Virus record (IMG/VR): IMGVR_UViG_2974499353_000001
Span: 104,721 to 157,013 of that record
Strand: one strand, 5' to 3'
Source of the DNA: a virus
Lineage: Duplodnaviria > Heunggongvirae > Uroviricota > Caudoviricetes > Ackermannviridae
Length of the DNA stretch: 52,293 nucleotides
Below the pieces are notes generated by a model that was not told the DNA's origin, did not search any database, and saw nothing but the letters and a program-made list of their open reading frames with translations. Within the stretch, counting starts at the first letter, position 1; each line of letters begins with the position of its first letter. The position numbers and the translations under genes are program-made. Below are positions 30,759-30,974 of this stretch, in pieces.

Positions 30759-30974
30759 AACTCACTGAACGGCAAGCTGTTTGAGTCCTGGCCACTCATA
30801 GCGATGTGAGACCAAGACAGGTAGGTTTAGGACTCAAACAGGTTTTCGTTTTCGTTGTGCGTGACTTTGCGGGTTTTTAGAAACTGACCACAAAAATAAT
30901 CGCTAATGATAACACGTTCCTGGCAGTAGCTTAATAGCCATACACCAGTGAGGTCTTCCGATTCCTCATCACCA
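30759..30974 (+). ncRNA. tmRNA-like RNA with resume signal and tag frame ANDNTFLAVA
   Basis: AAAAATAATC|GCT AAT GAT AAC ACG TTC CTG GCA GTA GCT TAA TAG; 13-bp stem 30777-30789/30829-30841; ends CACCA. Confidence 0.65.

Follow-up and report, generated by a model that had tools for sequence, protein, structure and literature searches.

The RNA and its locus

The DNA considered here (the window) is a stretch of 52,293 nucleotides from a virus of the family Ackermannviridae, positions 104,721 to 157,013 of IMG/VR record IMGVR_UViG_2974499353_000001. It belongs to a Kuttervirus and is 99.8% identical to Escherichia phage KEP4 across the stretch. At about 30764-31026 it carries the predicted gene of a small RNA, with a conserved core at 30841-31024, that is partly the message half of a transfer-messenger RNA (tmRNA) and partly an antisense RNA. 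Its message-like part holds a resume signal and a start-less frame for a degradation tag, and the arm that precedes this part is complementary to the resume site and tag codons of host tmRNA, on which the RNA, judged from these sequence features, probably docks. Trans-translation by tmRNA is the main bacterial pathway of ribosome rescue and quality control, and it affects the growth of several phages. The parts of the locus are as follows.

30730-30757, + strand: sigma-70-like promoter, TTATCA-16-TATAGT, with 9/12 consensus matches
30777-30841, + strand: 5' leader hairpin with a perfect stem of 13 base pairs (30777-30789 : 30829-30841), by direct reading
30841-30892, + strand: arm antisense to host tmRNA, by colinear reverse-complement alignment and cofolding
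30892-30901, + strand: resume signal AAAAAUAAUC, in which U30897 is position -5 and A30898 is position -4
30902-30931, + strand: start-less 10-codon tag frame ANDNTFLAVA (GCU AAU GAU AAC ACG UUC CUG GCA GUA GCU)
30932-30937, + strand: double stop UAA UAG behind the tag frame
30920-30948, + strand: helix-5-like hairpin with outer stem 30920-30923 : 30945-30948 and the first stop codon in its loop
30949-30981, + strand: H-type pseudoknot resembling tmRNA pseudoknot 2 (PK2), formed by stem 1 (30949-30953 : 30964-30968) and by CCGA (30958-30961) with UCGG (30978-30981)
30982-31024, + strand: second H-type pseudoknot, in which CGCAC (30982-30986) pairs with GUGUG (31003-31007) in the loop of the terminal hairpin
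30994-31001 : 31017-31024, + strand: stem of the terminal hairpin

The identity and anatomy of the RNA are near certain. Its promoter is the sole promoter-like site in 30300-31400 and places the predicted transcript start at about 30764. The leader hairpin, which also appears in the minimum-free-energy fold, is specific to Ackermannviridae copies: its stem is kept with altered bases in the relative L121, and the leader is absent from other phage families. Family-wide conservation begins with GUUUUCG (30842-30848) and ends with the terminal hairpin at 31024, and the part from about 30848 on shows 70-80% identity to unrelated phages.

An earlier reading of the locus, made from the sequence alone, had described the resume-like run, the frame ANDNTFLAVA with its two stops, an in-frame TAG at 30878-30880 with no ATG, GTG or TTG from there to the tag, the perfect leader stem and the promoter. 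All of these are present as quoted, and so is the likeness to E. coli on which that reading drew, as the real ssrA gene (L129:1501-1863) has AAAAAAUAGUC before the GCA of ANDENYALAA and a double stop. The extent had to be revised. The RNA had been placed at 30759-30974, ending in a hairpin plus CACCA, but the CACCA at 30970-30974 is not conserved; we set the boundaries at about 30764-31026 because conservation and covariation reach about 31024 through the second pseudoknot.

The resume signal and the tag frame

Frame statistics were taken from 99 unique IMG/VR copies of the RNA, and counts of upstream bases and upstream stops from 102 copies. The frame is of exactly 10 codons, with an alanine codon (GCN) first and an alanine codon (GCN) plus stop last, in 99/99 unique copies. 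These copies encode 14 peptide variants, among them ANDNTFLAVA, ANDNVFLAVA, ANDEQFLAVA, ANEEMYLAVA, ANEERFLMAA and ANDDVVLMAA. Divergent copies from Erwinia and Serratia phages again have 10 codons (ANDAQFLAVA, ANDNEMRAAA, ANDNEFKVAA and ANDNAYLMVA), and the frame persists even where the surrounding helices, helix 5 included, have been rebuilt (L132, L133). As a group, the phage tags have Asn-Asp/Glu near the start and nonpolar ends (AVA, MAA, AAA, VAA).

Variation within the frame is concentrated at third codon positions, with summed entropies of 4.3, 4.2 and 9.8 for positions 1, 2 and 3; codons 1, 2, 3 and 10 vary at the third position only. The sequence-only reading had named synonymous-type change in the tag as a check on its proposal, and the alignment bears this out. 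Its proposal of a tmRNA-derived, mRNA-like domain that lacks an alanine tRNA-like domain gains support from a tag frame that is kept and that varies mainly in synonymous or conservative ways.

The signal that sets the frame in tmRNA has a counterpart here. In E. coli tmRNA the frame is set by U85 and A86, of which A86 carries most of the effect and is better conserved than any other upstream base (PMC2481249); sequence bias within tmRNA tags is limited to the resume codon and the second codon (PMC4236655). Positions -5 and -4 of the phage RNA are the equivalents of U85 and A86. Position -4 is A in 102/102 copies and position -5 is U in 99/102. The resume codon specifies alanine in all copies and the second codon asparagine in all but one. 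An upstream in-frame stop, usually 8 codons back and with no start codon between, is present in 96/102 copies. By sequence comparison, the tag-frame signal is far beyond chance, and its pattern points to translation-type constraint.

Covarying structure downstream of the frame

The helices that enclose and follow the stop codons were evaluated pair by pair in 97 unique copies, and by pair-counting statistics in an alignment of 27 diverse copies (alignment A2). Helix 5, which holds the stop codon and is followed by pseudoknots, alternates between CUGG/CCAG and CUGAU/AUCAG; its fourth pair is G-C in 65 copies and A-U in 31. All nine pairs of the PK2-like pseudoknot are canonical in 97/97 copies, with compensatory changes at five of them: stem 1 has double changes at three of its five pairs, and the CCGA : UCGG loop pairing shows G-C swapped for A-U in 22 copies, plus one U-A exchange. 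The Rfam beta_tmRNA model places the 30949-30981 region on its own pseudoknot-2 region. In the second pseudoknot, pairs 3 and 5 of CGCAC : GUGUG show compensatory change and pair 2 is always G.U, and many forms of the terminal stem exist, with both strands changed to match (GCCC/GGGC, GCCCUGA/UCAGGGC, GCCCAC/GUGGGC, AUCC/GGAU and others). In alignment A2, 96.6% of cells are paired, against 31-44% with slid partners; ten pairs are changed on both sides, and the observed covariation score was reached by 0/500 shuffles.

These helices leave no room for a pairing of 5' CUCACUG with CAGUGAG that the sequence-only reading had proposed. The sequence CAGUGAGG is taken by helix 5 and by stem 1 of the pseudoknot, both with compensatory changes, and the proposed pairing is disrupted without compensation in the relative L121.

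The 3' strand of the terminal hairpin contains UCCCGUCGA (31018-31026), a perfect 9-nucleotide complement of host tmRNA nucleotides 17-25, on the helix 2a side. This match is probably due to chance, because it is interrupted by a mismatch in L121.

A 5' arm antisense to host tmRNA

The arm upstream of the resume signal was overlooked in the sequence-only reading, and it points to host tmRNA as the partner of the RNA. The reverse complement of the window arm is colinear with E. coli ssrA nucleotides 53-104 (z-score of 5.9 against shuffles, with the same-sense control at background). Along it, 30848-30858 faces host nucleotides 94-104, 30861-30866 faces 86-91, 30867-30872 faces 75-80, 30874-30881 faces 65-73 and 30884-30889 faces 57-62. 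The same colinearity was found in 14/14 representatives of the phage groups, with z-scores of 3.5-9.8 and the same-sense control again at background, so that extended complementarity to one target is conserved across the homologues. Long arms cover host nucleotides 53-106, and short arms, found in Felixounavirus, two Erwinia phage groups and one prophage type, cover nucleotides 80-106. When cofolded with host nucleotides 45-112, the window arm reaches -50.9 kcal/mol as against -8.3 alone, and arms overall reach -36 to -51 kcal/mol as against -3 to -8 alone. These results come from block searches, arm-only duplexes and reverse-complement alignment; whole-molecule RNAduplex was set aside for its giant meaningless duplexes and weak z-scores, and the arm-only RNAduplex energies, inflated for shuffles too, give z-scores of only -3 to -6.

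Two blocks carry most of the pairing detail. In 11/12 representatives checked, the core block, (U)AGUUUUCGU(C), can pair without a break, by Watson-Crick pairs alone, with host GACGAAAACU(A), nucleotides 96-106; these host nucleotides are the tag codons Asp-Glu-Asn-Tyr. The twelfth representative, the T5-like L028, is the exception, as the core block is absent among the matches listed for it, and its near-copies L101 and L084 carry GUUUUCGA, which interrupts the run. The second block, UUUGCGG(N)UUUUUA, complements host nucleotides 68-81, the 3' strand of pseudoknot 1, with a run of 14 base pairs in a T5-like copy and of 12 in a Schitoviridae copy. In the Kuttervirus arm there is also a tandem duplication of the tag-complementary core, GUUUUCGUUUUCG (30843-30855), which provides two alternative registers on host nucleotides 94-105.

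The arm fits the host better than it fits the RNA's own tag: its perfect runs are of 5-6 nucleotides against the latter and of 7-11 nucleotides against the former. Codons 3-6 of the RNA's own tag have diverged freely and the arm has not. Moreover, GUUUUCG is invariant in the 27-sequence alignment, including the short-arm families that lack its possible internal partner AGAAAC. Across Enterobacterales, with Erwinia, Serratia, Proteus and Pectobacterium among the genera compared, the target in host tmRNA hardly varies, which fits a single module that serves phages of many genera. An anti-ssrA oligonucleotide that stops tmRNA recycling of stalled ribosomes in ribosome display contains GTAGTTTTCGTCGTTTGCGAC and has the same target (PMC7048773).

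A strong promoter (TTGACA-16/17-TAGATT, TATAGT or TATTGT) ends 6-12 nucleotides before GUUUUCG in 31/90 contexts, a spacing that would make the arm the very 5' end of the transcript. In Ackermannviridae contigs, a similar promoter site lies 83-84 nucleotides before GUUUUCG, with the leader hairpin between.

Arms fitted to other tag regions were sought as well. Yersinia tmRNAs have a different tag region (of the ANDSQYESAALAA type) in four of the seven sampled. An IMG/VR search for arms fitted to Yersinia-type or Pasteurellaceae-type tag regions returned only real tmRNA genes, at prophage ends, or unrelated matches. In the Yersinia Ackermannviridae phage CAU_YEP3 (L256, PQ863687.1 75500-79500), the sole such phage examined, the entire RNA island is absent at the syntenic place. 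A contig of 1,081 nucleotides labelled Streptomyces sp. (L145, NZ_JBEYYR010000102.1) has an exact enterobacterial-type tmRNA 5' end, which is probably assembly contamination.

The tRNA-like half

The ARAGORN and Rfam tmRNA models agree with the sequence-only reading that no alanine tRNA-like domain is to be seen here. ARAGORN found no tmRNA in the window, only four ordinary tRNAs farther downstream, and Rfam at gathering thresholds found nothing at the tag RNA. At relaxed thresholds the scores were 20.6-26.3 bits for RF04321, 14-17 bits for RF01850 (beta-proteobacterial tmRNA) and 10.5 bits for RF00023; the gathering score is 47 for both RF00023 and RF04321, so the tag RNA falls below both, and the models recognise the resume-plus-tag stretch only. 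No acceptor stem or T-arm was detected in any copy by ARAGORN or covariance models. The 5' and 3' ends of the conserved core do not pair with each other, and the 3' tail is not conserved.

An acceptor half might be encoded nearby as a separate RNA, and the sequence-only reading had suggested a split system with the neighbouring anticodon-less tRNA-like RNAs. As a general mechanism this did not hold up. In 47/96 distinct genomic contexts there is no T-loop motif within 200 nucleotides upstream or about 320 nucleotides downstream of the RNA. Of six loci scanned with ARAGORN, none gave a tmRNA, and four, the prophage loci L127 and L128 among them, gave no tRNA either. Because of these T-loop-free contexts and ARAGORN results, a phage-encoded acceptor partner is not general in the family.

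A mini tRNA-like element does lie directly upstream in the window (30641-30716). It has an acceptor of 7 base pairs (GGUGAGG/CCUCGCC) with U3.G70 and a good T-arm (UGUGG-UUCGAUU-CCGCA), and it is without an anticodon stem. In other phage families the tag RNA is not generally accompanied by it.

Relation to known systems

The phage RNA shares much with one-piece tmRNA (RF00023): an A-rich upstream run with U-5 and A-4, an alanine resume codon followed by asparagine, a tag of 10 codons that lacks a start and ends in nonpolar residues, a helix 5 whose loop contains the stop, and H-type pseudoknots after this helix. It differs in having no acceptor stem, T-arm, CCA end or helix 2, in having only two small pseudoknots, and in that the position of pseudoknot 1 is held by an arm antisense to host tmRNA. 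As for membership of that family, the start-less, alanine-opened frame behind U-5/A-4 and closed by a stop is there, but a tRNA-like domain with G3.U70 is missing and the score is 10.5 bits as against 47.

A second comparison is with the coding piece of two-piece, circularly permuted tmRNA (RF04321), which is likewise a tag template that is not itself chargeable and must base-pair to an acceptor. Unlike that piece, the phage RNA has no 5' acceptor strand and no cognate acceptor piece is encoded beside it; it lies below the RF04321 gathering score and has no nearby partner piece. The one extended complementary stretch that was found lies in the message region of a complete host tmRNA and not in an acceptor piece.

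Phage-borne tmRNAs have been described before. They include complete genes in mycobacteriophages and in Bacillus phage G, as well as the tag-less RNA of mycobacteriophage DS6A, which consists of a tRNA-like domain (TLD) only and is thought to interfere with host trans-translation (PMC4131195; PMC11915505). Like the DS6A RNA, the RNA described here is a phage-borne half of a tmRNA, but it is its mirror image, since DS6A has the head without the message and this RNA the message without the head; the two have no sequence relation. Finally, the arm resembles the synthetic anti-ssrA oligonucleotide, which is antisense to the same stretch of resume and tag codons and shares the core GTAGTTTTCGTC...GCGAC (PMC7048773). 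That oligonucleotide is a laboratory DNA without a message, whereas the phage RNA also brings a tag template of its own, to replace the host's, and a 3' domain that is structured.

A proposed mechanism and its alternatives

Taken together, these features incline us, by a modest measure, to the view that the RNA docks on host tmRNA and blocks or rewrites its degradation tag. The host's own tmRNA is more likely to be the partner than the neighbouring phage tRNA-like RNAs. During infection, the arm would hybridise to host tmRNA and mask the host resume site and tag template. Long arms would open pseudoknot 1 (host nucleotides 49-78, as read on L129), and long and short arms alike would cover the host resume codon and the first five to six tag codons. 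Antiparallel pairing would bring the 3' end of the arm beside host helix 2 in the case of long arms, or beside an intact pseudoknot 1 in the case of short ones. With the arm ending at that junction, the single-stranded resume signal of the phage would emerge 11-17 nucleotides away, roughly in the place of the host's. Pseudoknot 1 can be reduced to a hairpin with tagging retained (PMC4236655), so there is no evident reason why an intermolecular helix at that position should be disabling.

On ribosomes rescued by host Ala-tmRNA-SmpB, the host tag would then be masked and the phage tag perhaps read instead. The docked RNA might thereby turn the one-piece tmRNA of the host into a hybrid two-piece one, and the products of stalled ribosomes would receive AANDNTFLAVA or a variant of it in place of the host tag; we put this forward tentatively, as the less probable side of the question. 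The coding-type conservation of the frame, together with A-4 and U-5, argues that the phage tag may be read, which would favour a swap over a plain block. The rewriting of the tag is a plausible though unproven step, and taken by itself it falls somewhat short of an even chance.

Several points weigh against docking with a tag swap. The phage tags are still like degradation signals in their nonpolar ends (AVA, MAA, AAA); from what is known of ssrA-tag variants, they may remain degradation signals with an altered preference for proteases or adaptors. The whole host tmRNA would remain attached, and the ribosome would have to load a branched template. To our knowledge, there is no natural case of a message given to tmRNA in trans by antisense docking. 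As to the arm itself, when one of 64 nucleotides was compared by BLAST with a complete E. coli chromosome, ssrA was not among the matches at E <= 10, although chance matches of 14-18 nucleotides were, and a rough Gumbel extrapolation of the shuffle distribution indicates that only the best arms would stand out genome-wide. Since the complementary blocks are short, the case rests on tmRNA as a pre-specified target and on the agreement of independent arm types. Covariation that tracks the target is not demonstrable, because the host target is invariant among known hosts.

The RNA could instead be a pure inhibitor of tmRNA, in which the arm stops trans-translation or targets tmRNA to RNase III, no ribosome ever reads the tag frame, and the message-like 3' part is a stable scaffold or a bait for SmpB, S1 or RNase R. 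The evidence from the arm is identical to that for docking with a tag swap. A bare antisense oligonucleotide to the same stretch stops tmRNA action in vitro (PMC7048773), and inhibition of tmRNA is a known phage theme, as reported for a tag-less, TLD-only phage tmRNA (PMC4131195; PMC11915505). What tells against plain inhibition is the frame. A scaffold needs no 10-codon frame in 99/99 copies and in four divergent ones, nor third-position wobble or in-frame stops, nor an invariant alanine resume codon, an asparagine second codon and A-4/U-5; and the frame outlasts the rebuilding of helix 5 in L132 and L133. We consider pure inhibition rather unlikely.

Nor does the RNA fit well with a stand-alone decoy that soaks up SmpB, S1 or stalled ribosomes without pairing to tmRNA, the match of its arm being a relic of an inverted duplication or a product of chance. 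The RNA is message-like, single complementary blocks are not significant genome-wide and evidence of host tracking is absent, all of which a decoy would accommodate. Nevertheless, every group has kept an arm that complements the host sequence, even as codons 3-6 of the RNA's own tag drifted freely apart; long-arm and short-arm families are unlike in sequence and yet cover the same host stretch; and GUUUUCG is invariant even in short-arm families without AGAAAC. SmpB binds chiefly via the tRNA-like domain, and this chief binding part is absent here. A decoy of this kind, one of the options offered in the sequence-only reading, is improbable, if still a contender.

A split system, in which the RNA would be the coding piece of a two-piece tmRNA and a neighbouring phage tRNA-like RNA, such as that at 30641-30716, the acceptor piece, has natural two-piece tmRNAs as a precedent. 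The permuted-tmRNA model gives the best Rfam score, though a sub-threshold one, and tRNA-like neighbours with T-arms occur in the window. Such a partner is nevertheless hard to reconcile with the 47/96 contexts that have no nearby T-loop motif, with ARAGORN finding a tmRNA at 0/6 loci and no tRNA at four, and with prophage copies that stand alone between antiterminator and holin genes. Covarying internal helices already use the sequences put forward as pairing partners, CAGUGAGG and CCUCAU; where alanine identity calls for G3.U70, the mini-tRNA upstream shows U3.G70; and the Rfam score is 20.6 as against a gathering score of 47. We give this explanation little credence.

The ssrA gene is an integration site for many mobile elements, which carry parts of it, and real ssrA genes were seen at prophage ends, but an inert remnant of a captured tmRNA gene or integration site is very unlikely, given that the element occurs in strictly lytic phage families and in 741 phage records, holds the tag region and not the ssrA 3' end, has four helices kept by compensatory changes and has strong promoters of its own.

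Were docking with a tag swap to prove true, the message of tmRNA could come in trans, and the RNA would be the first natural trans-acting tag template, a viral reprogramming of host ribosome rescue and a natural tool for redirecting tagging. Found in about 1.5% of the phage genomes sequenced, an RNA that combines an arm against tmRNA with a substitute tag template would represent a new class of viral counter-measure.

Distribution and annotation

The element, searched for with a prophage copy as the query, is present in 741/50,697 phage records, which are from phages of Salmonella, Escherichia, Klebsiella, Erwinia, Shigella, Citrobacter, Serratia, Enterobacter and Cronobacter. Relatives that carry it include genomes of Felixounavirus size (about 87 kb), siphophages of about 46 kb from Klebsiella, Shigella and E. 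coli, one Schitoviridae phage, one Nonanavirus, T5-size contigs and contigs from isolate genomes. It is found in at least eight phage lineages, strictly lytic families among them, and in lambdoid prophages, among which it would be spread as a mobile module. In complete E. coli genomes it occurs in 144/5,426, and in P22-like prophages it lies in a gap of about 1 kb between the late antiterminator gene and the holin gene. Among 401 species genomes from the taxonomic order to which E. coli genome G001 belongs, only one copy turned up; therefore, prophage copies could not be matched to variant host tmRNAs.

No record whose annotation was read has an annotated RNA at the element, and several have hypothetical open reading frames across it, which are probably false calls; for these records the RNA corrects the annotation. 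Examples in GenBank are the hypothetical protein genes XDC48481.1 and PJ16_048, which lie over the RNA (L001:386-529, minus strand; L004:301-738). We found no published account of the RNA in the searchable full-text literature, from which most subscription journals are missing, and the phage genome papers that were checked mention tmRNA solely via ARAGORN or Pharokka annotation.

One host label deserves comment. In L135 (JF974312.1, 'Vibrio phage pYD38-A'), the promoter, the tag RNA and the flanks are nearly base-for-base those of Klebsiella siphophage RCIP0103 (L002). The Vibrio label is doubtful because of this near-identity and because the arm matches enterobacterial tmRNA.

The tag RNA of one P22-like prophage lies between two cassettes (L127:5905-5962 and L127:6156-6253) that share the same long closing stem, GGTAAGAGCA...TGCTCTT, and that have no Rfam match. 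The insert of the first cassette, CCCTTATGGGGCTTGGCTTAAATGCA, reappears directly after the tag RNA in a Felixounavirus (L001, about 520-600). The flanking cassette looks like a second mobile structured-RNA module that moves with the tag RNA.

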